Assembly: GCA_964363825.1 (NCBI GenBank)
Contig: CAYIJR010000002.1
Coordinates: forward strand, 1 to 32,393
Direction of reading: 5' to 3'
DNA: 32,393 nucleotides
From: an uncultured Candidatus Saccharibacteria bacterium
GTDB lineage: Bacteria > Patescibacteriota > Minisyncoccia > Minisyncoccales > Staskawiczbacteraceae
The notes under the pieces are model-generated. The model was not told the origin of the DNA, ran no database searches, and was given only the letters and a program-made list of their open reading frames with translations. Of this stretch, positions 1,194 to 32,393 are shown in pieces (position 1 is the stretch's first letter; each line of letters starts with the position of its first letter). The position numbers were made by a program, and so were the translations under genes.

Positions 1194-1982
1194 ATGCAAA
1201 AAGAAGTTGGATGGTTATTAAAAGAAAAATATGGAGGGGTCAAAACTCCGGCTTTTGATAAAGATGTTAAACGGCTCAACGCCGATGAGCCGTTAGATTA
1301 CGTTATTGGATTTACGGAGTTTTTAGATTGTAAAATAGACTTGTCCAAAAAACCTTTGATTCCGCGCCCCGAAACCGAATTTTGGGTTCAGAAAGCAATA
1401 GAAGAAATATACCCTGATTTTGTAAGCTTACAAAATCAGGGTATAAGGGTTTTGGATATATTTTCGGGCTCGGGATGTATCGGCATTTCTATTGTGGCCC
1501 AGCTAAGCGGGCCAACCCCGCCCAGCGGGGTGCGTCAGATTCTTATTGTGCGACAGATGGTTTTTGCCGAAAAAGAAAAGAAATTTTTAGAGCAAATAAA
1601 AATCAATTGTAAAATAAATAATATTGATAAAAAAAGATATAAGATAATACAATCAGATGTTTTTTCTAATGTAAAAGGGAAATTTAATTACATTTTTGCC
1701 AATCCGCCGTATATTCCAAAAAACAGAAAAAATAAAGTCCAGTCATCGGTTTTAAAATACGAACCAAAGCAGGCGTTGTTTGGGGGAGAAGATGGCTTGT
1801 TGTATATCAGGAAATTTTTGGCCTCGGCCAAAAATTTCCTGAGCCCCGGTGGCAAAATTTTCATGGAATTTGACTATATTCAAAAAATACAGATTGAGGA
1901 GATGCTTAAAAATTATAACTATAAAAACTGGGAATTCCACAAAGATCAATATGGCAAATGGCGCTGGGTTGTTGTACAATAG
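1194..1982 (+). CDS. prmC: Release-factor glutamine N5-methyltransferase (HemK/PrmC)
   Basis: SAM-binding motif [12 protein letters not shown] and catalytic FANPPY (NPPY). The length and order are HemK-like. Confidence 0.88.
1497..1550 (+). repeat. 54-nt in-frame GC-hairpin insertion inside prmC, bounded by direct repeat TATTGTG
   Basis: TATTGTG occurs at 1490-1496 and 1544-1550. Between them lie two hairpin units: ggccc..gggcc (1496-1513) and ccccgc-cca-gcgggg (1516-1530). The segment encodes [18 protein letters not shown] between the SAM motif and the following helix. Confidence 0.85.
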
Positions 1983-3024: not shown

Positions 3025-3064
3025 CAAATATACGAATAACGACGATTTATATATTCGTATATTT
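3025..3064 (+). terminator. Word-repeat hairpin after the 2591..2995 ORF
   Basis: caaatatacgaata (3025-3038) pairs with tattcgtatatttg (3051-3064). The same ATACAAAT/ATACGAAT words recur on both sides across 3001-3085. Confidence 0.45.
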
Positions 3065-3098
3065 GCGAGTATTTGTATATTCGCGACTACTCCAATTT

Positions 3099-5546
3099 AT
3101 GCCTCTTATTATATACGCCCTCATCTTAGTTCTCTTTTTGTTATTGTTGGGTTTTTTTATTGCTCTTTTTTCTGAAAAGTCAGAAAAAAATTCGGTCTTT
3201 GGAAAACTGGAAACAGTTTTGTTTTTAGTTTTAATGCCAAAAAACGAATTAAAAAAAGATGATCAAGCGCAAAAAGAAGAGAAGCTTATTATTTCCCAGA
3301 TGGAGCAGGTGCTGGCCAATTTTTTATATTTAAAAAAGCCCAAGTTATTTGGCGAAATTCCATCAGTGGCTTTAGAAATCGCTTCAGAAACCGGCAACCA
3401 GGATATCTCTTTTTATGTTTCCGTCCCAAAATATTTAGAGACCGTCTTTGAAAAGTATGTGCAAGGAGTATATCCGCAGGCTATCGTGGACAAGGTGCCG
3501 CAGGATTATACGGTTTTTGAACCGCTTGGCCAAACAGCCGGGGCTTATTTAAGATTAACCGACAGCGCCCTATTTCCCATCAGCACTTACCAAAAACTGG
3601 AGAAAGACCCTTTGTCCACCATCACCAATAATTTAAATAAAATTGCAACCAATGAAGGGGCGGCCATACAATTGATTATCAGGCCGCTTTCTGCTTCTTA
3701 TATGAGGAAAAAAGGGGAAAAAGCTCTGCAAAAAATCAGGGAAGGCAAGCACGTCAGGAAAGCTGTATCAGAGGTAATGGAAAACCCTTTTATCGGCGTG
3801 CTGTCAGAAATTTTCCAGAGCGCTCCCAAAAAACCGAAAGACGTGCCGGATTTACAAAAAAAAGAACAGGGGATTGACCAGGTCGGGTATGATGCCATCC
3901 AAAGCAAAATCCAAAAACAGCCCTTTGAAACTAATATACGGTTGATTGCTTCGGCAAATACAAAAGAAAGGGCCGAAGACATTGTCAGCCATTTGGTGAG
4001 CGCTTTCAGCCAATTTTCACTATCGGCGACCAATAGTTTGGATGCAGTTTGGGTCAAGGGGGGCGCTTTGAAAAAATTTGTTTATGATGTCAGTTTCAGG
4101 AACTTTAACTCAAGGCAGAGGAACATTTTAAATACCGAAGAACTGGCCAGTATGTATCATTTCCCGACTTCGTTTACCGAAACGCCATATATTAAGGGTA
4201 TGAAGTCAAAAGTGGCGGCGCCTCCATCGGATTTGCCGGAAAAGGGGATTAACTTGATTGGTAAAGTAGTATTCCGCGGAGAAGAGAAAAAGGTGTATTT
4301 TGCTTCAAAGGACGACCGCCGCCGGCATTTTTATATTGTGGGACAGACCGGCACCGGAAAATCCGCTTTTTTGGAAAATATGATAAACCAGGACATTGCC
4401 AATGGCGAAGGCGTGGCGGTAGTGGACCCCCATGGCGAAACCGTGGAGCATGTGCTGGCCAATATTCCCAAAGACAGGATTGACGATGTGGTGCTTTTTG
4501 AGCCGTTTGACTTGGAAAGGCCCATGGGATTGAATATGTTAGAATACGATACGCCAGAACAAAAAGATTTTGCGGTGCAGGAAATGATCGCCATTTTTTA
4601 CAAATTATTCCCGCCCGAAATCATTGGCCCGATGTTTGAGCATTACATGCGAAACGCCATGCTGGCTTTGATGGCCGATCCGCAAAATCCGGGGACACTG
4701 GTGGAAATTCCCAAAATGTTTACCGATCCGGCATTTTTGCAGGAAAGGTTGGATAAAGTTTCCGACCCGGTAGTCAAAAATTTCTGGGTCAAAGAGTGGG
4801 CGCAGACCACGGGCAATACAAGATCGGACATGCTGGGGTATGTGGTTTCCAAAGTCGGGCGATTTATTGAAAACGAAATGATGCGCAATATTATCGGTCA
4901 AAGCCGTTCGGGGTTTGATTTGGCGGAAATCATGGACAACGGTAAAATATTTTTGGCTAATTTGTCAAAGGGCCAAACCGGGGAAGTCAACAGTTCGCTT
5001 TTGGGGCTGATTTTGGTTTCCAAAATCCAAATGGCGGCTATGAAACGGGCCAGGATGCCCGAAAGCCAGCGCAAAGATTTTTATTTGTATGTAGACGAAT
5101 TCCAGAATTTCACTACAGATTCCATTTCCACCATTTTGTCTGAAGCCAGAAAATACAAATTAAATTTGACCATTGCCCACCAGTACATTCCCCAGTTAAC
5201 CGACCAGATTAAAAACGCCGTGCTGGGAAACGTGGGAACCATTGGCGCTTTTCGTATTGGCGCCGAAGATGCCGAATATTTGGAAAAGCAGTTTGAGCCG
5301 GGCTTTTCGCGCTTTGACTTGGTCAATTTGGACAACTTCAGTTTGGTAATAAAAATGATGCTCAACAACAAAACATCCACGCCTTTTAAAATGGAAACCT
5401 ATCCGCCCAAAGAGGGCAAAAACCAAATCATAGACCCCATCAAAAAAATCTCAAAATTAAAATACGGCAAGCCCAAAGCCATGGTAGAGCAAGACATCGC
5501 CCGGCGGTCGTTCGTCTCGCCTTTGCCACCGCCAAGTAACACTTAA
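3099..5546 (+). CDS. VirD4/TraG/TraD-like coupling-type P-loop ATPase with N-terminal TM segment
   Basis: Walker A IVGQTGTGKSAF, Walker B FYLYVDEFQNF, and a TraG-D_C-like ARKYKLNLTIAHQYIPQL. The N-terminus PLIIYALILVLFLLLLGFFIALF is hydrophobic. ATG 3099 is preferred over the track's TTG 3063. Confidence 0.8.
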   Translation: MPLIIYALILVLFLLLLGFFIALFSEKSEKNSVFGKLETVLFLVLMPKNELKKDDQAQKEEKLIISQMEQVLANFLYLKKPKLFGEIPSVALEIASETGNQDISFYVSVPKYLETVFEKYVQGVYPQAIVDKVPQDYTVFEPLGQTAGAYLRLTDSALFPISTYQKLEKDPLSTITNNLNKIATNEGAAIQLIIRPLSASYMRKKGEKALQKIREGKHVRKAVSEVMENPFIGVLSEIFQSAPKKPKDVPDLQKKEQGIDQVGYDAIQSKIQKQPFETNIRLIASANTKERAEDIVSHLVSAFSQFSLSATNSLDAVWVKGGALKKFVYDVSFRNFNSRQRNILNTEELASMYHFPTSFTETPYIKGMKSKVAAPPSDLPEKGINLIGKVVFRGEEKKVYFASKDDRRRHFYIVGQTGTGKSAFLENMINQDIANGEGVAVVDPHGETVEHVLANIPKDRIDDVVLFEPFDLERPMGLNMLEYDTPEQKDFAVQEMIAIFYKLFPPEIIGPMFEHYMRNAMLALMADPQNPGTLVEIPKMFTDPAFLQERLDKVSDPVVKNFWVKEWAQTTGNTRSDMLGYVVSKVGRFIENEMMRNIIGQSRSGFDLAEIMDNGKIFLANLSKGQTGEVNSSLLGLILVSKIQMAAMKRARMPESQRKDFYLYVDEFQNFTTDSISTILSEARKYKLNLTIAHQYIPQLTDQIKNAVLGNVGTIGAFRIGAEDAEYLEKQFEPGFSRFDLVNLDNFSLVIKMMLNNKTSTPFKMETYPPKEGKNQIIDPIKKISKLKYGKPKAMVEQDIARRSFVSPLPPPSNT
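5381..5516 (+). repeat. Direct repeat copy 1 (functional 3' end of the ATPase gene)
   Basis: Matches 6373-6508 at 124 of 136 positions with no gaps (hand alignment). Confidence 0.9.
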
Positions 5547-5664: not shown

Positions 5665-5967
5665 ATGACTAAAATGATGGTAATAAACGCAATAAAAGTT
5701 AAGATAAAAAGCGCAGAGCCTTTTTTGAAGGAAAAATTCCGAGTCAAAAAAATCGGTATTTTCGGTTCGTATTCAAGGGGCGAGCAGAGAAAGAATAGTG
5801 ATATTGATATTCTCGTTGAATTTTATGAAGAACCAAGTTTGTTTGAATTTATACGGTTAGAGCGATACTTAAAGAGTATTTTAAAAATTAAAGTTGATTT
5901 GGTGATGAAAGATTCCTTAAAGCCATACATCGGAAAGCGTATTTTAGACGAAGTAATTTATGTATGA
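5665..5967 (+). CDS. mntA: MntA-type minimal nucleotidyltransferase (antitoxin of HepT/MntA module)
   Basis: GSYSRGEQRKNSDIDILV is the GSxxRG...DxD pol-beta NTase motif. 100 aa. 4-nt ATGA overlap with the next gene. Confidence 0.85.
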   Translation: MTKMMVINAIKVKIKSAEPFLKEKFRVKKIGIFGSYSRGEQRKNSDIDILVEFYEEPSLFEFIRLERYLKSILKIKVDLVMKDSLKPYIGKRILDEVIYV

Positions 5968-6302
5968 AAAAGAGCTCACCAAAAAGGGAGTATAAAAATT
6001 ACGTTTTAGATATTTACCATTCAACAGAAGAAATTGAAAAGTTTGTTGAAGGTTTTACTTTTGAAAAATTTCAGAGTGACAGGAAAACCGTTTACGCTGT
6101 TATCCGCGCCATTGAAATTATTGGCGAGGCGATAAAAAACATTCCCTCGTCGGTAAAAAGCAAACATAAAGAAATTCCATGGCAAGACGCGGCAGATATG
6201 AGAAATAAATTGATACATGAATATTTCGGCGTAAATCTAAAAGTGGTTTGGAAGGCCGTAGAAAAAGATGTTCCGGACTTCAAAATAAAATGCTGGAGTT
6301 AA
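5964..6302 (+). CDS. hepT: HepT-type HEPN toxin (DUF86)
   Basis: RNKLIHEY is the Rx4H HEPN motif followed by the conserved Tyr. 112 aa. Translationally coupled to the NTase gene. Confidence 0.85.
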   Translation: MKKSSPKREYKNYVLDIYHSTEEIEKFVEGFTFEKFQSDRKTVYAVIRAIEIIGEAIKNIPSSVKSKHKEIPWQDAADMRNKLIHEYFGVNLKVVWKAVEKDVPDFKIKCWS

Positions 6303-6622: not shown

Positions 6623-7072
6623 ATGGTTCAGGAAGATAATTTTTCTATAAAAGAGATTGTTCAATATAATGATTATGATCTCAAAGGGCTAAATAAACTT
6701 TTGCGCCAGTGGTCGGCAACGGGATATCAAATGGATGCCGGTTATTTTAAATCTTTAATCAAGCATAGCCACGTTATTTTATTGTGCGACAAGAAAAAAG
6801 TTATCGGCACGGTTACCTTAATTCCCGTGCATAAACTTTCGGGCAAGAAGGGATCTTTGGAACATTTGATAGTGGATGAAAAATATCGGGGCAGGGGATT
6901 AGGGGAAAAGTTAATGCGTCATGCTATTGAACTTGCCAAAACACTAAACATGGAAACAGTGTTTTTAACCTATGAACCAGACCGGGTCGCGGCGGGTTCG
7001 CTTTATAAAAAATTGGGGTTTAAAATAAAAAAAACAAATTTTTGTTATTTGCACTTAAAAAATGGAAAATAA
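6623..7072 (+). CDS. GNAT family N-acetyltransferase
   Basis: Motif A is LIVDEKYRGRGLGEKLMRHAIELAK. ATG 6623 is preferred to TTG 6614. Confidence 0.8.
   Translation: MVQEDNFSIKEIVQYNDYDLKGLNKLLRQWSATGYQMDAGYFKSLIKHSHVILLCDKKKVIGTVTLIPVHKLSGKKGSLEHLIVDEKYRGRGLGEKLMRHAIELAKTLNMETVFLTYEPDRVAAGSLYKKLGFKIKKTNFCYLHLKNGK
6779..6792 (+). repeat. Copy of the TTATTGTGCGACAA word (inside the GNAT gene, read L-L-C-D-K)
   Basis: Exact ttattgtgcgacaa. Confidence 0.9.
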
Positions 7073-9535: not shown

Positions 9536-11332
9536 ATGTGCGGAATTGTTGGCTACATAGGAAGCAACAAAGCCCTTCCTTTTTTAATGTCAGGATTGAA
9601 AAAATTGGAATACCGGGGTTATGACAGCTCGGGTGTTTGTGTTAAAGAAAACAACGATTTTTATTTGCTTAAAAAACCGGGCAAAGTCAGCGAGCTGGAA
9701 AAAAATATAGAAAAAGAAAATGTTGCCGGTACTGCTGGCATTGCCCACACCCGCTGGGCGACTCATGGTGTTCCCAATGAAAAAAACGCTCATCCCCACA
9801 CAGACTGCACAGGCAAGATTGCCATTGTCCATAACGGCATTGTGGAAAATTACCAAGCATTAAAAGAGTTGCTCGTGCAAGAAGGGCATAAAATAATTTC
9901 AGACACCGATTCAGAAATCATCGCCCATTTGATTGAAAAATTCTACGATGGGGATATTGAAAACGCAACTACCAAAGCTTTAAAATTGATTGAAGGCGCG
10001 TACGGCCTGGCCATTTTGGATAAAAATTCAGAAAAAATAATTGCCGCCCGGAAAAGCAGTCCGTTGGTGTTGGGCATTGGCCAGGGCGAAAACTTTATTG
10101 CATCTGATGCGTCAGCCATTTTGGGCTACACCAAAAATGTCGTGTATTTAGATGACGGAGAAATGGCGGTGATGACCAAAGATAGCTATGTGGTGAAAAA
10201 ATTAAACGGCGAATTAGTAGACAAAAAAGTCCATCAGATTGCCATGACCATTGACCAGATAGAAAAGAGGGGATTCAAGCATTTCATGCTCAAAGAAATT
10301 TTTGAACAGCCCGAAGCCATTGAAAATACCTTGAGGGGTAGAATTATTGGTAATAAAGTAAAGCTCAATATTGATTTGGACTTGTCGTCAATCCAAAGGA
10401 TTATTATTACTGCTTGCGGCACCAGTTGGTATTCCGGGCTCATCGGTAAATACTTGATTGAAAAGTTGGCTGGAATTCCGGTTGAAGTTGATTATGCTTC
10501 GGAATTTCGGTATCGCGATCCTATTGTGCGACAAAGCGATTTGATGATTGTCATTTCGCAATCTGGCGAAACGGCCGACACGCTGGCGGCGCTCAAAGAG
10601 GCAAAGCAAAAAGGGGCCAAGACATTGGGCATTATCAATGTGGTTGGGTCTACCATTTCGCGTGAAGTTGATTCTGGAATTTACTTGCACGCCGGCCCGG
10701 AAATAGGGGTGGCCAGCACTAAGGCTTTTACCTGTCAGGTTACAGCCTTGGCGTTGCTGGCTTTATATTTTAAACAGGAAAAAGGGGAATCGCAAAAGGG
10801 GATATTAGAAGAATTGCCAAAAATACCGGAAAAAATCAGGGAAATTTTGAAAATGTCCGGCGACATACGTAATTTGGCCGAAAAATTTAAAGAGTACAAA
10901 AACTTTTTGTACTTGGGCAGGAATTTGAATTTCCCGGTGGCCTTGGAGGGAGCGTTAAAATTAAAAGAAATTTCGTACATCCATGCCGAAGGGTATCCGG
11001 CGGCCGAAATGAAGCACGGCCCCATTGCATTAATAGACGAAAATATGCCCGTGGTTTTCATTTGCCCCAAAGACGGCACCTATGCCAAAATTTTAAGCAA
11101 CATGGAAGAAGTCAAAGCCCGCGGGGGGAATATCATTGCCATCACCAATGAAGACGACGGCAACATTTCAAAATTGGCAAACCACATTATCAAAGTCCCA
11201 AAAACCATAGACATTTTGTCTCCATTAATCAATGTCATCCCGTTGCAATTGTTGGCCTACCACATCGCCGACTTGAAAGGATTAAATGTTGACAAACCGC
11301 GCAACTTAGCCAAATCCGTGACGGTGGAGTAG
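9536..11332 (+). CDS. glmS: Glutamine--fructose-6-phosphate aminotransferase
   Basis: MCGIVGY N-terminal nucleophile, two SIS domains (ISQSGETADT), C-terminal KSVTVE. 598 aa. Confidence 0.95.
   Translation: MCGIVGYIGSNKALPFLMSGLKKLEYRGYDSSGVCVKENNDFYLLKKPGKVSELEKNIEKENVAGTAGIAHTRWATHGVPNEKNAHPHTDCTGKIAIVHNGIVENYQALKELLVQEGHKIISDTDSEIIAHLIEKFYDGDIENATTKALKLIEGAYGLAILDKNSEKIIAARKSSPLVLGIGQGENFIASDASAILGYTKNVVYLDDGEMAVMTKDSYVVKKLNGELVDKKVHQIAMTIDQIEKRGFKHFMLKEIFEQPEAIENTLRGRIIGNKVKLNIDLDLSSIQRIIITACGTSWYSGLIGKYLIEKLAGIPVEVDYASEFRYRDPIVRQSDLMIVISQSGETADTLAALKEAKQKGAKTLGIINVVGSTISREVDSGIYLHAGPEIGVASTKAFTCQVTALALLALYFKQEKGESQKGILEELPKIPEKIREILKMSGDIRNLAEKFKEYKNFLYLGRNLNFPVALEGALKLKEISYIHAEGYPAAEMKHGPIALIDENMPVVFICPKDGTYAKILSNMEEVKARGGNIIAITNEDDGNISKLANHIIKVPKTIDILSPLINVIPLQLLAYHIADLKGLNVDKPRNLAKSVTVE
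10521..10535 (+). repeat. Copy of the word CTATTGTGCGACAAA (inside glmS, read P-I-V-R-Q)
   Basis: Exact match to the core attgtgcgacaa. Confidence 0.9.
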
Positions 11333-11432: not shown

Positions 11433-11450
11433 CTTATTGTGCGACAAAAT
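11433..11450 (+). repeat. Copy of the word CTTATTGTGCGACAAAAT at the left edge of the high-GC block
   Basis: Exact core, in an intergenic position. Confidence 0.9.
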
Positions 11451-13907: not shown

Positions 13908-14645
13908 GTGAATAACGCGTTAGAGGAAAAACAAGAAGTTTTTTCCGGCCCGTTTGAGGAATGCTTGAAGCATTTTGCAGCGGATTTTTCTGCAAAAATG
14001 CCCAAGTTTGCACAAAAAACAGTCGATGCTAAAATTTTTATCGCTGATTTTTGTGGAAGAAACATCTACACCATTAGCGAATGGTTAGCGGCCAAGTATC
14101 AACCTGCGGGCACATCACTGATGAAGATGATGTGCTATCTGGACATGGTTGGCTACAGAATCTTTGAGCTGGAAAGGATGTCCAAGGCCAAGAGGCACTT
14201 TATTGAGCTTATTGGATTTGGAATCTTATCTGCTCAAGAAGGATCTCAATTGCTGTCCTATTCTCAGCCCGGGCAACTTCTGAAAATCCTTAGAGAAGAT
14301 GTCGGCACAACCGAATCTAAGGAACAGAGGATGTGGGAGATTTGGCGAGAGCGCAAGGAAGTGCTCGAGCAAAAAAAAATGCAACGCCGCCAAGCGTTAC
14401 CGGGTGTGCCAGAAAAAAACCTTTTTCAGAAAGAGCCTTTTGTTAAGGCCAATGGGATGATTGATAGCATTGACGCTATGGTCACCATGGAGAATTTGCT
14501 CCGCACCCTAGATGAAGACTTTTCCCAAGAAGTGTTTGAAAACCTTCTTCGCGGAAAGGGGACAGTGCTCCGGCTTTCAGCCAAGCTCAACGAATTGAGT
14601 TACACAATCCTCAAGGCAGAGGAAAAGAAAGGAGGTGATTCTTGA
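13908..14645 (+). CDS. Hypothetical protein with a possible XRE-like HTH (245 aa)
   Basis: GTG start after GGGAGG. The IYTISEWLAAKYQPAGTSLMKMMCYL segment resembles an HTH. The C-terminal part is coiled and charged. Confidence 0.6.
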   Translation: MNNALEEKQEVFSGPFEECLKHFAADFSAKMPKFAQKTVDAKIFIADFCGRNIYTISEWLAAKYQPAGTSLMKMMCYLDMVGYRIFELERMSKAKRHFIELIGFGILSAQEGSQLLSYSQPGQLLKILREDVGTTESKEQRMWEIWRERKEVLEQKKMQRRQALPGVPEKNLFQKEPFVKANGMIDSIDAMVTMENLLRTLDEDFSQEVFENLLRGKGTVLRLSAKLNELSYTILKAEEKKGGDS

Positions 14646-14923: not shown

Positions 14924-15850
14924 ATGAGCATGAAGATCATCAAGAAAAACCTGGTCGTGGAGCTTGAAAAAATCCACACCAACCTGTTTGTCAGGAAGGC
15001 CCTAGATGCCAACCGCAAAAAGCATTTCGAGGATCTCATTGCCGAGATTGTTGCCCTGCAGAACCAGGGCAAGACGCTCGACCCCCAGCTTTTGGACAAT
15101 GTCCGTCCGATGCTGGTCACGCCGGCGTACGAAGTGTTGGGCAACGGCAAGTTGCGGTATCTGCCCGACACCCCTTACTATGAGGGAGTTGATGGCCGGC
15201 ATCGTCACTGGGCCTGGACTGTTCATGGAGTCAAGGAGACTGCCGTGACGGTGGCCGAGTATGAGACCTACGTGGATCTTATTTCGGAGGCCTCAAAAGC
15301 CAATCTTGGCGGTTCTATGCCACCGACTCCCGAAGACCGGAAACTCACCGTACGGAATCTTGTGCAAGCCGGCGCCAGTCACCGCGAAGTCGCTGAAGCC
15401 ATCGGGTTTACGATGGGCATGACTCGTCGCATGGTGGAGCAGGCTAAGGCAGAAATCAACCGTGCCCGGTTGATCGATGCCCTTGACGAGTACCGCCTTG
15501 GCAATACTCCCCTGCCCCAGATTGCCGCAAAGCATCGCGTGGATGAGGATAAGTTACGCGAGCTTGTGGGGGTGTCTGGCCGCCGGGGCAAGAAAAAGAT
15601 CAAGGAGCTGCACACCCAGCTTACCGCCACAGCCAAAGGAAACGCGGCCCGGCGGTCCAAGCTCTTTGCCAGTCTTATGGACAAGTACCAAGACCGGGAA
15701 GTGACGGTCAAGCAAGTCAGGCAAGTGTTCAAACACTTGCAAGATACCTTGGCGCGTCAGGAAAAACACATCAAGGAATGGGAAAGTCGTTTTGAAGCTG
15801 CCATAAGAGGAGGCAGCCAAGATCAAAATGAAAAAAAGGAATCGGCGTAA
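14924..15850 (+). CDS. ParB/Srx-fold (ParB-like nuclease domain) protein with central HTH
   Basis: The VDGRHRHWAW (DGxHR) motif lies about 90 aa from the N-terminus. An HTH-like segment is SHREVAEAIGFTMGMTRRMVEQAK. SD AAGGAGA. Confidence 0.65.
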   Translation: MSMKIIKKNLVVELEKIHTNLFVRKALDANRKKHFEDLIAEIVALQNQGKTLDPQLLDNVRPMLVTPAYEVLGNGKLRYLPDTPYYEGVDGRHRHWAWTVHGVKETAVTVAEYETYVDLISEASKANLGGSMPPTPEDRKLTVRNLVQAGASHREVAEAIGFTMGMTRRMVEQAKAEINRARLIDALDEYRLGNTPLPQIAAKHRVDEDKLRELVGVSGRRGKKKIKELHTQLTATAKGNAARRSKLFASLMDKYQDREVTVKQVRQVFKHLQDTLARQEKHIKEWESRFEAAIRGGSQDQNEKKESA

Positions 15851-15975: not shown

Positions 15976-16377
15976 TTAGTGTTGTAGGACGAAGCCATCA
16001 ACGCTTTGGCTATTGATTTCTCGGAGGCTTCGATTCTCTTCACGAAGGTAGTAATTAGCCTGTTTTAACCCATAAATGGTTCCGATGAGATTGAAGATAC
16101 ATTGGGGTAATTTTTCAATCGGATCTTCGCCTTCTTCGAGTTGGACTATGGGCGTCAGGTTGCTTGCATCAACCTCATTCACAACCCTGTGTTGCGGGTA
16201 AACCAGCTTCAATATGAAGTTACCTGGTGTTCCACTCATTGGGTGTGGTTCGATTTGCTCCACAACCACGCCGAGACTTTCAAAATTTGCTTCGCAGGGA
16301 CCATGGCAAGTGTACGCTACGAGCGTATCTTTCTGAATTTTCACGTTTCTGTCCTCATGTGAGCGAAAGGATGGCAC
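15976..16377 (-). CDS. Hypothetical protein (133 aa), convergent with the ParB-like operon
   Basis: Only a GTG start is available and there is no clear SD. It has its own promoter-like element and terminator. Confidence 0.45.
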   Translation of the reverse strand: MPSFRSHEDRNVKIQKDTLVAYTCHGPCEANFESLGVVVEQIEPHPMSGTPGNFILKLVYPQHRVVNEVDASNLTPIVQLEEGEDPIEKLPQCIFNLIGTIYGLKQANYYLREENRSLREINSQSVDGFVLQH

Positions 16378-19088: not shown

Positions 19089-20285
19089 ATGGCAGAAATT
19101 AAACCACAAACAGTAGAAGATATTCTAAGCAGGGGAGTCCAGGAGGTTATTGTAAGGGAGGATTTAAAGAAAAAATTGCTCTCGGGCAATAAATTGAGGG
19201 TGTATTTTGGCGTTGATCCGACAGGCAGCCAGCTACATTTGGGGCACGCGGTCGTGCTGCGGAAATTGAAAGCATTATCTGATTTGGGCCATGAAGTGAT
19301 TCTTTTGATTGGAGATTTTACGGCTAAAATCGGCGACCCTTCGGGTAGGGATGCCATGAGAGTTCCACTTTCTGACAAGCAAATAAAAGAAAATATGAAA
19401 GATTACAAAAAACAGGCTACGAAAATTTTAGATTTTTCAAAAGTTAAAATAAAATATAATTCACAATGGCTGGCAAAATTACAACTCGCAGATATTTTAC
19501 AGTTATCCTCCTATTTTACAGTTCAACAAATGTTACATCGCGATATGTTTGACAAACGAATAAAAGAAAATAAGGCAATAAGTTTAAGTGAATTTATGTA
19601 TCCGTTAATGCAGGGATATGATTCTGTGGCTATGGATGTTGATTTGGAAATTGGCGGGAATGATCAAATGTTTAATATGTTAATGGGTAGAATGTTGCAA
19701 AAAACATATGGTAGTAAAAAAGACAAGGATATTTTAACAACGAAGCTTTTACCCGGAATTGATGGGCGGAAGATGAGTAAAACCTATAATAACGCGATTT
19801 ACTTAACTGATGAACCAAATGATATGTATGGCAAAATAATGTCTATTAAAGACGAATTGATTTCAGATTATGCAGAGCTTTGCACGGATTTAGATTTGCA
19901 AGAAATTAAAAAAATGCCCAATCCGCGGGATCAAAAGGCAATGCTGGCAAAAGAGGTTGTGAAAATGTATCATGGGGAGAAGGCGGCCGTTCAAGCGGCG
20001 GAAAATTTTGATAAAATTTTCCGCCGGCACGACACGCCCTCTGAAATGCCGATTTTTGAAACCTCGCGCCAAAATTACCCCATTTTAGACTTATTGTGCG
20101 ACAGCGGTCTGGCTGAATCAAAAAATGATGCCAAAAGGGTTATTGAAGGCGGAGGCGTAACCGTCATTGCGAGCGGAGCGAAGCAATCCCTAAAAGTTAC
20201 AGATTGGCGGGAAGAAATAAAAATTGAGGATGGAATGATTATTCAATTCGGCAAAAGAAAGTTTGTAAAAGTTAAATTAAGGTAG
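19089..20285 (+). CDS. tyrS: Tyrosine--tRNA ligase
   Basis: HLGHAV (HIGH), KMSKT (KMSKS), and a C-terminal S4-like domain. Confidence 0.92.
   Translation: MAEIKPQTVEDILSRGVQEVIVREDLKKKLLSGNKLRVYFGVDPTGSQLHLGHAVVLRKLKALSDLGHEVILLIGDFTAKIGDPSGRDAMRVPLSDKQIKENMKDYKKQATKILDFSKVKIKYNSQWLAKLQLADILQLSSYFTVQQMLHRDMFDKRIKENKAISLSEFMYPLMQGYDSVAMDVDLEIGGNDQMFNMLMGRMLQKTYGSKKDKDILTTKLLPGIDGRKMSKTYNNAIYLTDEPNDMYGKIMSIKDELISDYAELCTDLDLQEIKKMPNPRDQKAMLAKEVVKMYHGEKAAVQAAENFDKIFRRHDTPSEMPIFETSRQNYPILDLLCDSGLAESKNDAKRVIEGGGVTVIASGAKQSLKVTDWREEIKIEDGMIIQFGKRKFVKVKLR
20090..20103 (+). repeat. Copy of the word CTTATTGTGCGACA inside tyrS (read L-L-C-D-S)
   Basis: Exact core. Confidence 0.9.
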
Positions 20286-21472: not shown

Positions 21473-22804
21473 ATGCAAAGATTTTTAATAACGGAGGCAA
21501 TAAAGCATATAGGCGAGAAGGTCAAGGTGGCCGGGTGGGTGAATGTCCGCCGGGCGCACGGCAAAATAATTTTTATTGACCTGCGCGACAAGAGCGGTAT
21601 TTTGCAGTGCGTTTTCGTGCCGTCCAATAAAAATGCTTACGAGGCGGTTGGAGAGGTAAGGACTGAATGGGTGGTGGAATTGACAGGCCAAATTGTCAAA
21701 AGGCCGGAGAATATGGTTAATAAAAATATTGAAAGCGGGATGGTTGAGCTTTCGGTTGAGGAGTTGAAAGTGTTGTCAAAAGCAGAGACTTCGCCAATTC
21801 CAGTGGGAGAAGAGGTTCCCGAAGAAACAGATATTGATAAAAGAATGGATTGGCGTTGGATTGATTTGCGTAAAAATAAGAATGCCCTGGTTTTTAAAGT
21901 GTGGACGCTCATGGAAGCCGCTTTTAGGCAATACTGGACTTCAAATAATTATATAGAAATACATTCTCCAAAACTTATTGCCACTGCCAGCGAATCGGGG
22001 GCAGAAGTTTTTGAAGTAAAATATTTTAAAACAAAAGCATATCTTGCCCAGAGCCCGCAATTTTATAAGCAAATGGCTATGGCGGCTGGATTTGAAAAAG
22101 TTTTTGAAGTAGGCCCGGTTTTTCGCGCCGAACCCTCGTTCACTTCCCGCCATGCCACTGAATTCACCGGTTATGATGCGGAAATTTCTTTTATTGATTC
22201 CCATTATGATGTGATGGAAGAAGAAGAGAGGATGATTGCTTTTGGGTTACAAAAAGTAAAAGAAACTTACGGCGAAGAGATTAAAAAAGAATTTAACAGA
22301 GAAGTTATTGTCCCATCTATTCCATTTCCCAAAATATCAATGAAAGAAGCAAAAAATATTCTTTCAAGTCGCGGCGTTCACAGTGATAAAGAAGGGGATT
22401 TGTCTCCGGAAGAAGAAAGAGGCTTGAGCGAATATGTGAAAGAAAAACAGGGGCATGAATTTGTATTTGTTACAGAATATCCGGTAAGCGTAAGGCCGTT
22501 TTATCATATGCATGATGAGAAGGACCCATCGCTAACCAAAAGTTTTGACCTGCTTTGGAATGGCCTTGAAATCACCACGGGCGCCCAAAGAGAGCATCGG
22601 TATGATATTTTAAAAGCACAGGCAAAAGCAAAAAAGGTGAATATAAAAAATTTGCAATTTTATTTAGATTTTTTCAAGTATGGTTGCCCGCCTCACGGCG
22701 GTTATGGCATGGGGCCGAACAGAATGATTATGAAACTTTTCGGAATTGATAATGTCAGAGACGCCATGTTTGTTTACCGCGGTGTAAAAAGGCTAACGCC
22801 ATAG
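21473..22804 (+). CDS. aspS: Aspartate--tRNA ligase, archaeal/eukaryal type (class IIb, 443 aa)
   Basis: LAQSPQFYKQ, FRAEPSFTSRHATEF, and GGYGMGPNRM. Its short length lacks the bacterial insertion domain. Confidence 0.85.
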   Translation: MQRFLITEAIKHIGEKVKVAGWVNVRRAHGKIIFIDLRDKSGILQCVFVPSNKNAYEAVGEVRTEWVVELTGQIVKRPENMVNKNIESGMVELSVEELKVLSKAETSPIPVGEEVPEETDIDKRMDWRWIDLRKNKNALVFKVWTLMEAAFRQYWTSNNYIEIHSPKLIATASESGAEVFEVKYFKTKAYLAQSPQFYKQMAMAAGFEKVFEVGPVFRAEPSFTSRHATEFTGYDAEISFIDSHYDVMEEEERMIAFGLQKVKETYGEEIKKEFNREVIVPSIPFPKISMKEAKNILSSRGVHSDKEGDLSPEEERGLSEYVKEKQGHEFVFVTEYPVSVRPFYHMHDEKDPSLTKSFDLLWNGLEITTGAQREHRYDILKAQAKAKKVNIKNLQFYLDFFKYGCPPHGGYGMGPNRMIMKLFGIDNVRDAMFVYRGVKRLTP

Positions 22805-29628: not shown

Positions 29629-30129
29629 TTACGCCTCTTTTTTTATTAACGTTTTCGCCATCTCTATCCACTTTGATCGGCGCGGCTTTTGCTTGTACTT
29701 GGCGGTTGATTTGTGGATTTCCATCAAAGTGTGCAAATCACTTTTGGGCCATTTGGCCAAATAGACACCTTTGTTTTTATGGATAATGGCAACCGCTTTT
29801 TGCCACATTTCAAAATCCCGTCTCTTTTTTTCCAGTTGTAATTTATTTTTTTTGAAAAATGGGACAACTGCGTCATGGATGCCATCAATGTCTTGGACAG
29901 AAAACCGCGCTTGGTCTTTGATAATATGTATGTCTCCACAGCCCATCATTTTTTTGACTTTTCCCATCATTTTGGAATTTTCTTTCGGGCTGGTGATTAC
30001 AAATTGCAGCTTCCAACGGTAATAGGTGGGCGAGCCTGTCCTTTCATGCCTTGTGTCTTTGCGGAATTGCAAATCAAAACAGCAGTCGTTGTTAATTAGA
30101 GAGGTAATAGTTGAATTTTCTTTTGCCAT
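29629..30129 (-). CDS. Free-standing single-motif LAGLIDADG-type homing endonuclease homolog (degenerate motif)
   Basis: The I-CreI-like layout aligns by eye: ITSLINNDCCFDLQF (motif position), RWKLQFVITS, MGCGDIHIIKDQARFSVQDIDGIHDAVVPFFKKNKLQLEKKRRDFEMW. ATG 30129. Confidence 0.65.
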   Translation of the reverse strand: MAKENSTITSLINNDCCFDLQFRKDTRHERTGSPTYYRWKLQFVITSPKENSKMMGKVKKMMGCGDIHIIKDQARFSVQDIDGIHDAVVPFFKKNKLQLEKKRRDFEMWQKAVAIIHKNKGVYLAKWPKSDLHTLMEIHKSTAKYKQKPRRSKWIEMAKTLIKKEA

Positions 30130-30151
30130 AATATTATTATAGCAAAGAATT

Positions 30152-30165
30152 AGTTGTGCGACAAT
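30152..30165 (+). repeat. Variant copy of the word (AGTTGTGCGACAAT)
   Basis: The core ttgtgcgacaa is exact. Confidence 0.75.
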
Positions 30166-30173
30166 CCCCAAAT

Positions 30174-30210
30174 CTTATTGTGCGACTCCGCTTAGCGGGG
30201 TGCGACAAAT
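30174..30210 (+). repeat. Composite unit: word interrupted by GC hairpin
   Basis: cttattgtgcgac-tccgc-tta-gcgggg-tgcgacaaat. Confidence 0.9.
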
Positions 30211-30213
30211 ATC

Positions 30214-30241
30214 TTGTTTATTATTATTTTTTTGATAATAT
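30214..30241 (+). promoter_or_regulatory. Candidate promoter of rdgB with extended -10
   Basis: TTGTTT at 30214-19, a 16-nt spacer, then TGaTAATAT (TAATAT at 30236-41). SD AAGGAGA lies before ATG 30271. Confidence 0.5.
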
Positions 30242-30270
30242 TACGTTAACCAATCAAAAAGGAGAAACGT

Positions 30271-30858
30271 ATGCAAATAGTTCTTTCAACGCGCAATCCA
30301 AGCAAAGCAGAGCAAATTAAGGCAATCTTTGCGTCTTTGCCAATTTCAATCTTAACCCTTGCTGAGGCGGGGATTGAAGGCGAAGCAATTGAAGACGGTG
30401 TAACTCTTCAAGAGAATGCTTTAAAAAAAGCTCTATTTGCCCATCAGCCGGGATTATGGGCAATGGCTGATGACACGGGAATATTCATTGATGCCCTTAA
30501 TGGTTTGCCTGGTGTAAATACCGCCCGGTGGTCAGGTGGCCACAAAGAAACCGAACAAATGACCAACTGGATATTAAAACAGCTTGAAGGCTTTGATAAC
30601 CGCTCGGCTACGTTTGAAACAGTGGTTGCACTTGTTTCACCAAATGGCGAACAGTTCTTTTTTGGCGGCAAAGTGAGGGGGCGTATTCTTGAGGCGCCAA
30701 AGACTCAGCCACAACCCAAAATGCCCTACAGCTCAATTTTTTCGCCAGAAGGCAGTGATAAAGTTTGGGCAGAAATGACCATTGAAGAAGAAAACGATAT
30801 TTCGCATCGCGGGCAAGCTTTTCGTAAAGCAAGAGCTTTCTTAATAACATTTCTATAA
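30271..30858 (+). CDS. rdgB: Non-canonical purine NTP pyrophosphatase (RdgB/HAM1 family)
   Basis: STRNPSKAEQI, ADDTGIFIDALNGLPGVNTARW, and ISHRGQAFRK. Confidence 0.88.
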   Translation: MQIVLSTRNPSKAEQIKAIFASLPISILTLAEAGIEGEAIEDGVTLQENALKKALFAHQPGLWAMADDTGIFIDALNGLPGVNTARWSGGHKETEQMTNWILKQLEGFDNRSATFETVVALVSPNGEQFFFGGKVRGRILEAPKTQPQPKMPYSSIFSPEGSDKVWAEMTIEEENDISHRGQAFRKARAFLITFL

Positions 30859-30898
30859 ATCAACCCACGCCAACGGCCTCGCAAAAATAGCGGGGCTT

Positions 30899-30934
30899 TT
30901 TATTGTGCGACCCCGCTTAGCGGGGTGCGACAAG
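30899..30934 (+). repeat. Composite unit: word interrupted by GC hairpin
   Basis: tttattgtgcgac-cccgc-tta-gcgggg-tgcgacaag, directly after the rdgB terminator hairpin gcctcgc..gcggggc-ttttt. Confidence 0.9.
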
Positions 30935-31015
30935 TTTTGACTGCATTACTATAATTTGATAGCATATATCTGGTGCTTGATCACTGTTTAATAAACTTAA
31001 TGAAGGGGAGTTGAA

Positions 31016-31477
31016 ATGAACGGCACTGTTGTTGGAATTTTCGTCCACGCTAAAGCTGGCGAACCAATGCAGCAAGTGCAAGAAGTTGAGGCGGTCGCCG
31101 GCAAAGGCCTTAGTGGAGACCGATATTGTGCAGGCGAAGGAAGTTTTAACAAAGGCGCCCAGGGAAAAAGGCAAGTAAGTCTCATCAATGCGATTTTCTT
31201 TGAGGGCAGTGATTTTGAGTATGCCGATAGCCGCCGCAATATAGTCGTTAAGGATGTTGAGCTGATGTGGCTTATTGGTAGGGAGTTCAAAATCGGAGAA
31301 GCTCTTTTCAGGGGCGTAAAGTACTGCGACCCTTGCGAAAAACCAAAAAGCTCGCAAAACAAAGAAAAAATTTTCAAAGAGGAGTTCTTTGATCGCGGAG
31401 GGCTTATTGCAGAAGTTTTAGTGAGTGGTGTGATTAAGACAGGGGACGCTATTATTTCTCCGCCAAAAGGGTACTAA
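31016..31477 (+). CDS. MOSC domain-containing protein
   Basis: 153 aa. GKGLSGDRY, RQVSLIN, and the conserved-Cys segment FRGVKYCDPCE. Confidence 0.8.
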   Translation: MNGTVVGIFVHAKAGEPMQQVQEVEAVAGKGLSGDRYCAGEGSFNKGAQGKRQVSLINAIFFEGSDFEYADSRRNIVVKDVELMWLIGREFKIGEALFRGVKYCDPCEKPKSSQNKEKIFKEEFFDRGGLIAEVLVSGVIKTGDAIISPPKGY

Positions 31478-31494
31478 CTGCCTAAAAAAACAAT

Positions 31495-31527
31495 GCCGCT
31501 CAGCAACTTCTGCTGGCGGCCTTTTTA
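31495..31527 (+). terminator. Rho-independent terminator of the MOSC gene
   Basis: gccgc(t)cagca-acttc-tgctggcggc, followed by cttttt. Confidence 0.8.
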
Positions 31528-31540
31528 TTCATAGAAGATT

Positions 31541-31597
31541 CTTATTGTGCGACCCCGCTTAGCGGGGTGCGACAAAATCATGGATGTCGCACAATAA
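31541..31597. repeat. Composite unit plus the only reverse-orientation copy of the word (inverted pair)
   Basis: cttattgtgcgac-cccgc-tta-gcgggg-tgcgacaaaat (31541-77), catggat, then tgtcgcacaataa (31585-97). Confidence 0.9.
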
Positions 31598-31667
31598 AAA
31601 TGGGCGAGGCATCGGTGGGCGAGGGGAGTAGTACGATTTAAGATTTTTGATTTTAGATTGCAGATTT

Positions 31668-31684
31668 CTATTGTGCGACAAATT
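31668..31684 (+). repeat. Copy of the word CTATTGTGCGACAAATT, 11 nt from the recombinase stop codon
   Basis: Exact core. Confidence 0.9.
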
Positions 31685-31694
31685 GGGCAGGGGA

Positions 31695-32393
31695 TTAGGA
31701 TTTCAAATTTTTGCCGCTGTGGAATTGACGGTGGATATCGCGCAGGCGCTTGTTGGTTACGTGTGTGTAAATTTGAGTGGTGGCAATATTTTTATGGCCC
31801 AAAAATTCCTGGATAGTGCGCAAGTCAACTCCTTGGTTGAGCAAATCCGTGGCGTAAGAATGGCGAAGCGTATGGGGAGTGGTAAAAACAGGTATGCCGG
31901 CCATGATAGCATATTTTTTAACAATCCTTTCAATGGATCTTGAAGTCAGCCTTCCGCCAGATTTGTCTTTAGCCCGAAAATTCAAGAATAAAGCTTTTTC
32001 TTTTGAGTTGCGTATGGACATATACTTTTTAATCCATTCCAAAGCCCTTTCTGAAAAGTACACAGTGCGGGGATTTCCCCCTTTGCCAATGATGCCGATT
32101 TCAAAATCTTTCTTGTCTTTTATATTTGCAAACTGTTCGGTGTTGAGAGCCACTAATTCGGCGATTCTCAAGCCGGTTGAAAAAAAACTTTCAAGAATGG
32201 TGCGATCCCTGATGGCGGTATAGTTTTTGGGTTCGGCAGCGGTTAAAAGCTTCTCTACTTGCTCTAAAGCAAGGAATTTGACGGTTTTTTCGCTTTTATT
32301 GCCCTTAGGAAGGGTTATTTTATCAGGGGGCAATGAAAGTATGTCTTTAGTCACAAAATAGCCTAAAAAGGCCCTTAATGCGATTAAATAGTA
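31695..32393 (-). CDS. Tyrosine recombinase, XerC/XerD-like (5' end beyond the window)
   Basis: GLRIAEL (Arg I), HTLRHSYATDLLNQGVDLRTIQEFLGHKNIATTQIYTHV (RHR-Y catalytic set). The frame stays open upstream of the track start to nt 32393 (YYLIALRAFLGYFV). Confidence 0.85.
   Translation of the reverse strand, partial: YYLIALRAFLGYFVTKDILSLPPDKITLPKGNKSEKTVKFLALEQVEKLLTAAEPKNYTAIRDRTILESFFSTGLRIAELVALNTEQFANIKDKKDFEIGIIGKGGNPRTVYFSERALEWIKKYMSIRNSKEKALFLNFRAKDKSGGRLTSRSIERIVKKYAIMAGIPVFTTPHTLRHSYATDLLNQGVDLRTIQEFLGHKNIATTQIYTHVTNKRLRDIHRQFHSGKNLKS

Follow-up and report, generated by a model that had tools for sequence, protein, structure and literature searches.

The stretch analysed here, called the window below, comprises 32,393 nt of contig CAYIJR010000002.1 (assembly GCA_964363825.1, family Staskawiczbacteraceae) and ends inside the gene of a Xer-family tyrosine recombinase, beside which three hairpin-bearing repeat units lie around an rdgB gene and a MOSC-domain gene. 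The short word present in each unit matches one arm of a dif-like site located on the other side of xer. Copies of this word are polar with respect to the xer locus and are conserved at the DNA level, even within genes. Each hairpin occupies one fixed point of the word, homologous hairpins recur at unlinked sites, and the genes found between xer and a neighbouring LAGLIDADG gene vary among relatives. The preferred reading, with a probability of about 0.5, is that the words are dif half-sites of a terminus-located single-Xer system, three of which carry a miniature palindromic insertion in a spacer that holds variable single-gene modules. The analysis covers 36.6 kb of this genome, namely the window and an extension by L002, an assembly of the same Hainich groundwater population reaching 4.2 kb beyond the window end, and 80 related loci of about 21 kb each, designated by L numbers.

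Xer, the dif-like site and its solo half-sites

The recombinase gene, the dif-like site and the copies of the word without a hairpin (plain words) are located as follows, in window coordinates unless a locus is given.

31695-32393, minus strand: Xer-family tyrosine recombinase gene, 3' two-thirds, running off the window; 319 aa in full
L002:5541-5568, minus strand of the window: dif-like 28-mer TTGTCGCAAAATGTAGGTAAAGCGACAT, in the xer leader, about 340 bp past the window end
31668-31681, plus strand: xer-proximal plain word, 14 nt from the xer stop codon
31584-31596, minus strand: reverse word, TTATTGTGCGACA on the minus strand, about 100 nt downstream of the xer stop
30154-30164, plus strand: plain word adjoining the LAGLIDADG start, 10 nt ahead of hairpin unit 1
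20094-20104, plus strand: plain word within tyrS
11437-11447, plus strand: plain word, intergenic, after glmS
10524-10534, plus strand: plain word within glmS
6782-6792, plus strand: plain word within a GNAT acetyltransferase gene

The best NCBIfam matches of the Xer protein are XerD, XerC and XerA, all under their curated cut-offs. The protein is 70-90% identical over hundreds of Parcubacteria (the sources name Staskawiczbacteria and Nealsonbacteria) and is more conserved than rdgB. Among 24 relatives with at least 6.7 kb on either side of xer, GC and AT skew switch from plus to minus at this gene in 23, and in the window genome (window and L002) the GC skew likewise changes sign there. These switches are consistent with converging replichores, that is, with a replication terminus at xer. 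On sequence grounds, the recombinase appears to be the single housekeeping Xer of the organism and not a cassette integrase. The first-pass annotation had seen cassette-array logic in a series of repeats ending at this recombinase; the NCBIfam matches and the position at a skew switch do not support a cassette role for it.

In 53 of 58 loci, a near-invariant 28-mer precedes xer by 35-270 bp. Its sequence in the window genome is TTGTCGCAAAA-TGTAGG-TAAAGCGACAT, with an 11-6-11 layout and arm symmetry at 7 of 11 positions, and a promoter-like site (TTGACA-N17-TATTAT) stands upstream of it in the xer leader. It is identical to E. coli dif at 16 of 28 positions, a level reached by 25 of 20000 shuffles. 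In single-recombinase systems such as XerS/difSL and XerH/difH, the xer gene adjoins dif at the terminus (PMC5357621, PMC2731167). The present locus resembles these systems of streptococci and lactococci and of Helicobacter and Campylobacter, respectively, in that one Xer gene stands directly beside a two-armed, partly symmetric site at a skew switch, its 28 bp falling within the 28-31 bp of such modules, and in the unequal arms, one strong and one weaker. The protein does not resemble XerS more than XerD, XerC or XerA, and its host clade is Parcubacteria; unlike difSL, with its 11-bp centre, the site has the canonical 11-6-11 layout.

Reverse-complemented, the left arm of the 28-mer (AyGTCGCA(C/A)AAT) gives the word ATTGTGCGACAT, exactly so in several relatives and with agreement at 10-12 of 12 positions overall. 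Because of this correspondence, the word is taken to be a solo copy of the left (XerC-type) arm of the clade's putative dif site. The xer-proximal word was also considered as dif and rejected, since no partner arm was found on either side at any spacing; it is therefore not itself a recombination site. Tight inverted word pairs, with spacings of 6 (L094), 8 (window) and 9 bp (L088), were rejected as dif because their arm polarity is opposite to that of the 28-mer. The pair in L094 (L094:11058-11092) forms a perfect palindrome, TTATTATGCGACAA-TATATA-TTGTCGCATAATAA, in which two words face each other across the 6-bp spacer; its arm polarity indicates that it is probably not a functional dif. A literature search found no description of a dif site or Xer half-site motif for Parcubacteria or the candidate phyla radiation (CPR), and a search on the motif sequence returned primers only. 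The sites described here offer a testable candidate dif site and Xer half-site motif for this large uncultivated group.

In the window, TTGTGCGACAA has 9 matches at no more than one mismatch versus 0.66 expected, with a strand bias of 10:1. The form (Y)TTATTGTGCGACA(R) occurs further at 1546, 6782, 10524, 11437 and 20094, every copy being on the plus strand and those in genes using two reading frames. The words in glmS and tyrS are part of the native coding sequence, with no indel. Beyond the window, in L002, the genes turn to the minus strand, and the sole word found there is on the minus strand as well, within gltX. The plain word at 30154-30164 is the one copy that the first-pass annotation overlooked, its layout of the spacers and its reverse and simple copies being otherwise present as described. 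Read in reverse complement, this word contains TTGTCG, which is predicted to serve the LAGLIDADG promoter as its -35 hexamer, with 17 nt to TATAAT.

Across relatives, the word retains both position and polarity. It is found 20-60 bp (up to about 120 bp) past the xer stop in 46 non-redundant relatives, where only about 14-16 bp of the site is conserved, and many relatives have a second, oppositely oriented word 460-660 bp upstream of xer, just past the preceding gene. Over all loci, the two orientations are represented 28 vs 4 times upstream of xer and 80 vs 5 times downstream. In other words, the words aim at the xer/dif locus from both flanks and sit on the G-rich strand of each, which is consistent with the leading strands of two converging replichores. 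Moreover, the reverse word is kept at +101 to +104 in L094, L097 and L104 and displaced by an insert in L106. A plain word lies 25-35 bp before the LAGLIDADG start in every relative with that gene, and distant relatives retain the xer-proximal word though no LAGLIDADG gene is nearby.

The words within coding regions, labelled here by conserved peptide, occupy orthologous positions in three reading frames: FYCAT (TAT TGT GCG ACA) in 6 of 6 cases, FIVRQ in 5 of 6, and LLCD in gltX. Within the word, synonymous changes are absent, and flanking synonymous sites are saturated. Polarity, fixed positions, frozen synonymous sites and native coding context together indicate that the words function as DNA, at which level they are maintained within housekeeping genes as well. 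The word is neither a local nor a cassette-specific repeat, since polar, conserved copies lie within housekeeping genes on both sides of xer. Decayed attachment sites are likewise ruled out by this set of features. Inspection of the contexts of words within genes revealed no -10 partner, so sense or antisense promoters were also rejected, and neither a known RNA family nor a tRNA target was found. DNA uptake sequences are dense and genome-wide without fixed position; most relatives hold a single word per 21 kb, fixed next to xer, and this reading was therefore rejected as well.

The closest known analogue of the solo words would be the XerD-binding sites (XDS) of Bacillus subtilis. As presented in PMC10945525 and PMC11894783, citing Karaboja 2021, XDS-bound XerD unloads SMC (condensin) complexes within the terminus region. 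According to the same accounts, XDS, like the matS sites of E. coli bound by MatP, are scattered terminus sites separate from dif that do not recombine, and the words similarly equal one dif arm without a partner arm. By analogy, the solo half-sites would most likely bind Xer monomers without recombining. Unlike XDS, it is the left (XerC-type) arm that is copied, in a one-recombinase system for which binding and any SMC unloading are hypothetical; the words are strictly replichore-polar, lie in coding regions with frozen synonymous sites and border variable modules. This suggests an extension of the idea of solo Xer-binding sites from B. subtilis to a one-recombinase system, with two unexpected features added, namely strict replichore polarity and selection on a DNA word within coding sequence.

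Hairpin units and their fixed point of insertion

Four hairpin-bearing sites are present in the 36.6 kb of this genome, each at a word. One of them is coding, and the others do not lie outside the spacers between xer and the LAGLIDADG gene.

30175-30208, plus strand: unit 1, consisting of the word TTATTGTGCGAC, the hairpin TCCGC-TTA-GCGGG and the repeat GTGCGACAA; between the LAGLIDADG gene and rdgB
30900-30933, plus strand: unit 2, immediately 3' of the rdgB terminator
31542-31575, plus strand: unit 3, 3' of the MOSC terminator, with the reverse word 8-10 nt off and facing the unit
1499-1556, plus strand: degenerate hairpin and word in prmC/hemK (gene 1194-1982), reading CCCGCCCAGCGGG, GTGCGTC, then the full word

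The three hairpin-interrupted units claimed by the first-pass annotation are real: the pattern TTATTGTGCGAC-YCCGCTTAGCGGG-GTGCGACAA occurs at exactly three places in the window, all on the plus strand, with 0 expected from 100 shuffles. Identity between the units ends precisely at the 34-mer boundaries, the flanks sharing nothing further, and unit 1 deviates at one stem base (T for C). In unit 2, GCGACA coincides with the predicted -35 hexamer of the MOSC promoter. The claim that a GC hairpin with a 3-nt loop splits the word agrees with folding predictions for single-stranded DNA, which give each unit a 7-bp GC stem and a TTA loop. Outer TTGT/ACAA pairing lengthens the fold to a 31-nt quasi-palindrome with two single-base bulges, and the folding free energies range from -8.4 to -11.7 kcal/mol (z -3.0 to -4.7). 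The sequence GTGCGAC is present on either side of the hairpin, doubled in the manner of a target-site duplication as had been proposed, and the same anatomy recurs at non-orthologous words. The spacer between uppS and the LAGLIDADG gene, described earlier as lacking a unit, indeed has no copy. The units were rejected as terminators because they have no T-tract, were not called by a terminator scan and have separate terminators just upstream.

Identical hairpin units exist in three other assemblies of the same Hainich groundwater population. The exact unit is absent from 185,579 GTDB species representatives, among which only noise and unrelated tandem repeats of Prevotellaceae were matched; no hairpin unit was found in the 80 related loci or in IMG/VR, where the 28-mer had no match either. 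The Prevotellaceae in question, KH2P17 and Prevotellamassilia (L006, L012, L016, L022, L032, L067 and others), are unrelated organisms that hold many 22-bp tandem-repeat arrays containing ATTGTGCGACA.

Comparison with relatives defines the point of insertion. A unit exceeds a plain word by 13 nt and a 7-nt copy of the half-site's outer part, placed between GCGAC and AA. At the position of unit 2, L088 and L106, whose rdgB is 76% identical, have a plain word after rdgB. The position of unit 1 is an indel relative to L088, and a plain second word occupies it in L104, L109 and L115. Other inserts obey the same rule, in that all start directly behind GCGAC, on the half-site's outer edge, and terminate in CGAC. 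For example, a 125-nt insert with three hairpins (L088:10850-10975, the same in L106) splits the xer-proximal word after GTGCGAC, ends in CGAC and contains an internal TATATTGTGT similar to the 5' half of the word. In the FYCAT gene of L109, L111 and L112, an in-frame insert of 39 nt, missing from orthologues, follows directly after GTGCGAC. It reads TCCGCTAAGCGGG-GTCAAGG-TCCGCTCAGCGGA-CCGACA, and its two CCGC-NNN-GCGG hairpins are homologous to the window units. In the window itself, the hairpin and word of prmC lie in an in-frame insertion of 14-15 aa, according to a structure-anchored alignment with solved HemK structures, and an 18-nt sequence of this insertion, AGATTCTTATTGTGCGAC, recurs in the left flank of unit 3. 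The hairpin family thus occurs at unlinked sites of two genomes whose Xer proteins are 77% identical.

The recurrence of homologous hairpins at one fixed point supports the reading as a target-site duplication and disfavours random filler. On this view, the hairpin would spread among half-sites as a miniature palindromic insertion with a specific target and would not serve as a cassette recombination site. In effect, a palindrome of 13-34 nt can apparently home to one fixed base position of a predicted protein-binding site. Xer would be expected to cut the arm at its inner end, whereas the inserts start at the outer end; as a speculation, the minimal repeat of 4 nt fits a staggered cut of the LAGLIDADG type. 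Sites of the dif and pdif types are also targets of IS1202-family insertion sequences, which enter in one orientation, a fixed short distance beyond a Xer-binding arm (PMC10132070). The present inserts likewise place mobile sequence at a fixed point outside a Xer-type arm, for which binding is here predicted; unlike IS1202-family elements of 1.5 kb with a transposase and terminal inverted repeats, they are non-coding and 13-125 nt long.

An alternative is that word and hairpin represent the ends and targets of REP/RAYT or IS200/IS605-derived miniature elements moved by single-strand transposition with a HUH enzyme of the Y1 type, polarity resulting from coupling to replication. Palindromic elements of Rickettsia are tolerated in frame inside genes. 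The hairpins of the window genome and its relatives share with all these families their short length, a fixed flank, an orientation bias (here linked to the replichore) and in-frame tolerance within genes. Such a mechanism fits inserts that follow a defined sequence on its 3' side and themselves end in the same CGAC. Another CPR genome from this sample carries a Y1_Tnp gene. This alternative nevertheless appears unlikely. The hairpin is missing from most words, and the words equal a dif arm, are kept at orthologous positions where Xer is only about 70% identical and, in glmS and tyrS, arise from native coding sequence without an indel. No transposase, Y1 (RAYT-type) included, is present among the open reading frames (ORFs) of the window and L002. 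Additionally, REP/RAYT-type systems have many dispersed intergenic hairpins; here there are only four sites in 36.6 kb, always at a word and never in other intergenic spacers, the inserts measure 13-34 nt, far less than in those families, and occur at dif half-sites only, and plain words are not elements. The first-pass proposal of an insertion system with a fixed target is therefore sustained in part: the same-point inserts in prmC, L109/L112 and L088/L106 agree with it, but a REP/RAYT-like family leaves the abundant conserved plain words unexplained.

A second alternative regards the words as a polar guide or barrier motif, comparable to KOPS read by FtsK or to a Ter-like fork trap, perhaps read by the LAGLIDADG protein. 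The hairpins would then be scars of staggered cleavage or fork stalling, with a 4-nt CGAC stagger and captured filler DNA. The strict polarity toward the skew switch, the length and low copy number of a motif under DNA-level selection, and the overlap of the word with the -35 element of the LAGLIDADG promoter in all relatives with this gene are in line with such a role; TerB similarly overlaps the tus promoter. LAGLIDADG cleavage typically leaves a 4-nt stagger, which matches CGAC as the minimal repeat at all inserts. KOPS orientation is replichore-skewed and switches at dif, as is that of the words. KOPS is also a frequent genome-wide motif of 7-8 nt read by FtsK gamma; the word has 13-14 nt and is rare in the loci covered, with one copy per 21 kb in most relatives. 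Its identity with a dif arm suggests that it is read by Xer. The xer-proximal word persists in distant relatives with no LAGLIDADG gene nearby, a reverse word lies within the left group, and homologous hairpins at independent sites disfavour random filler. A guide or barrier motif is accordingly rather improbable.

Gene modules between xer and the LAGLIDADG gene

The closer relatives keep the backbone xer - LAGLIDADG - uppS - L27 - pyrG. In the window, uppS, the LAGLIDADG gene, rdgB, the MOSC gene and the recombinase match the Pfam families Prenyltransf, LAGLIDADG_1, Ham1p_like, MOSC and Phage_integrase, respectively.

29629-30129, minus strand: free-standing LAGLIDADG gene, 166 aa, a conserved xer neighbour in closer relatives
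30136-30164: predicted LAGLIDADG promoter region; includes TTGTCG
30271-30858, plus strand: rdgB (Ham1 family) module, with its own terminator at 30875-30897
31016-31477, plus strand: MOSC-domain gene module; promoter-like site 30927-30965, terminator near 31492-31521

Judged by eye, the catalytic Asp of the LAGLIDADG motif is apparently retained.

The content of the spacer between xer and the LAGLIDADG gene varies as follows.

Nothing: L094, L096, L113, L123
rdgB: L088/L106
rdgB and MOSC: the window
purD: L104
Sigma-54 activator: L115
AsnA-like gene: L107; L178 (Xer 90% identical)
TspO and others: L172
Genes of unknown family: L099

At this place, rdgB is found in L088/L106 and not in L094, L096, L113, L123, L178 or L179, and MOSC is missing from the syntenic L088/L089/L106. 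In L179, whose Xer is 87% identical, SpoVG and copper-resistance genes come after xer, and the neighbourhood has no LAGLIDADG gene. The modules are oriented opposite to xer and have words of the same orientation at their borders. The bracketing of rdgB and MOSC would be explained by their location in a variable spacer whose single-gene modules all have half-site borders. The first-pass annotation asked whether the genes come and go as units bounded by the hairpin repeat. The turnover is indeed bounded by words, and MOSC is absent in L088/L106, but the borders in relatives are plain solo half-sites, hairpin units standing there in the window genome only. The comparison thus shows these reduced genomes exchanging single metabolic genes (rdgB, MOSC, purD, AsnA-like, TspO) in the xer-adjacent, terminus-proximal spacer.

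Site-specific capture of these modules by Xer is possible but unsupported. No complete two-armed site (11-6-11) flanks the modules, and xer separates them from the dif-like 28-mer. The pattern would look no different if alleles were replaced, or if terminus-associated recombination took place, between conserved flanks. MOSC was rejected as a travelling word-flanked cassette, as its homologues occur in four other contexts, in other CPR genomes, without words. A further observation concerns one other CPR genome from the same Hainich sample (L176:1405-2630, L177:104-1329), in which a MOSC homologue stands beside a Y1_Tnp (IS200-like) gene flanked by inverted GAAGCTTAGCTTC hairpins, with no words there.

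It is also improbable that the locus is a Xer-driven cassette system of the dif-module, Xer-exploiting integrative element (IMEX) or integron-like type, in which the units are recombination sites, perhaps with attC-like folds, that capture circular single-gene cassettes. The unit-gene-unit-gene-unit order ending at a tyrosine recombinase invites this interpretation, as do the absence of MOSC from a syntenic relative, the differing single genes flanked by same-orientation words in the same spacer of relatives, and the folding of the units to imperfect hairpins with two single-base bulges. Gene modules of varying content at Xer-type sites are known, moreover, from the pdif modules of Acinetobacter and from IMEX such as CTX phage and the gonococcal genetic island (PMC6449649, PMC7399989, PMC12907356). 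However, pdif modules, which are mostly plasmid-borne, have complete XerC-XerD sites (11-6-11) at their borders, usually of alternating orientation; the borders here are solo arms in direct orientation with no recombination-competent site. The modules of relatives are flanked by plain half-sites and not by hairpins, no second arm or central region is conserved beside the words, and the sequences just inside the junctions share nothing outside the 34-nt unit. Words also lie within essential genes, homologous hairpins lie in frame in genes away from any cassette, the true dif-like site is on the opposite side of xer, and MOSC homologues elsewhere lack words.

Integron attC arrays, in particular, similarly consist of single genes separated by foldable imperfect palindromes beside a tyrosine recombinase. 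As the first-pass annotation had recognised, the locus is not a classical integron. The integron-integrase models of NCBIfam match residues 235-304 of the Xer protein only, with 103 and 60 bits vs cut-offs of 265 and 435, and there is no IntI signature. The units have no GTTRRRY/RYYYAAC cores, and the palindrome is found in this genome only. The recombinase is convergent with rdgB and MOSC (tail-to-tail with both, as stated earlier), and these genes carry their own promoter-like and terminator-like sequences. Integron cassettes, by contrast, lack promoters and are read from Pc beside a divergent intI, whose product has an integron-specific extra domain.

The least probable explanation, that the units lack function and mobility and are one chance palindromic insertion that reached two adjacent words through local gene conversion or unequal exchange, serving at most as extra stem-loops between transcription units, accommodates three near-identical units within 1.4 kb among otherwise plain words and their absence from the GTDB representatives, IMG/VR and the related loci, but not the homologous hairpin at the same point of the word in another genome and gene (L109), the degenerate hairpin in prmC 29 kb away, or units that have no T-tract and are not called terminators.

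Weight of the evidence and other features of the window

Several points weigh against the reading of the words as dif half-sites of a single-Xer system with a palindromic insertion. The binding of Xer to the words and the role assigned to them are predicted, the function of solo sites being proposed by analogy with XDS, for which strict replichore polarity is not known to be documented. The xer-proximal word has no second arm and hence is no recombination site itself. The insertion mechanisms of the hairpin and of the gene modules are likewise proposed ones: no enzyme for the spread of the hairpin was found in 36.6 kb, and the insert has just 13-34 nt. About 5 insertion sites are known in 2 genomes. 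Three of the four hairpin-bearing sites of the window genome lie within 1.4 kb, and this cluster could equally be explained by local copying, through gene conversion or duplication during module insertion.

A broader model is doubtful, although it would unite these elements. It states that the terminus of Parcubacteria is organised by polar solo half-sites that a single Xer reads and that are retained even in essential genes. These half-sites would double as landing pads for a palindromic element, which enters at their outer edge and at times in frame within proteins, and for single-gene modules captured next to xer, forming a Xer-linked gene-capture zone in ultra-small genomes. If the Xer or the LAGLIDADG protein takes part in either insertion process, this would constitute a new route of gene gain in CPR bacteria.

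Other features of the window lie outside the xer neighbourhood. An 827-aa protein (3063-5546) has weak matches to HerA, TrwB and a type IV secretion coupling-protein ATPase, and could be a DNA translocase with bearing on terminus biology. A nucleotidyltransferase (MNT) and HepT-like ribonuclease pair at 5665-6302 is a typical toxin-antitoxin module. Between 14000 and 17000, the GC content is 0.48-0.50 vs 0.41 overall, with ORFs without a family match at 13908-14645, 14924-15850 and 15976-16377; this stretch may be foreign DNA. Finally, the class II aminoacyl-tRNA synthetase genes of the window (21473-22804) and of L088 (L088:1167-2609) encode near-identical N-terminal 110 aa followed by unrelated remainders, which suggests that the catalytic part was exchanged by recombination.

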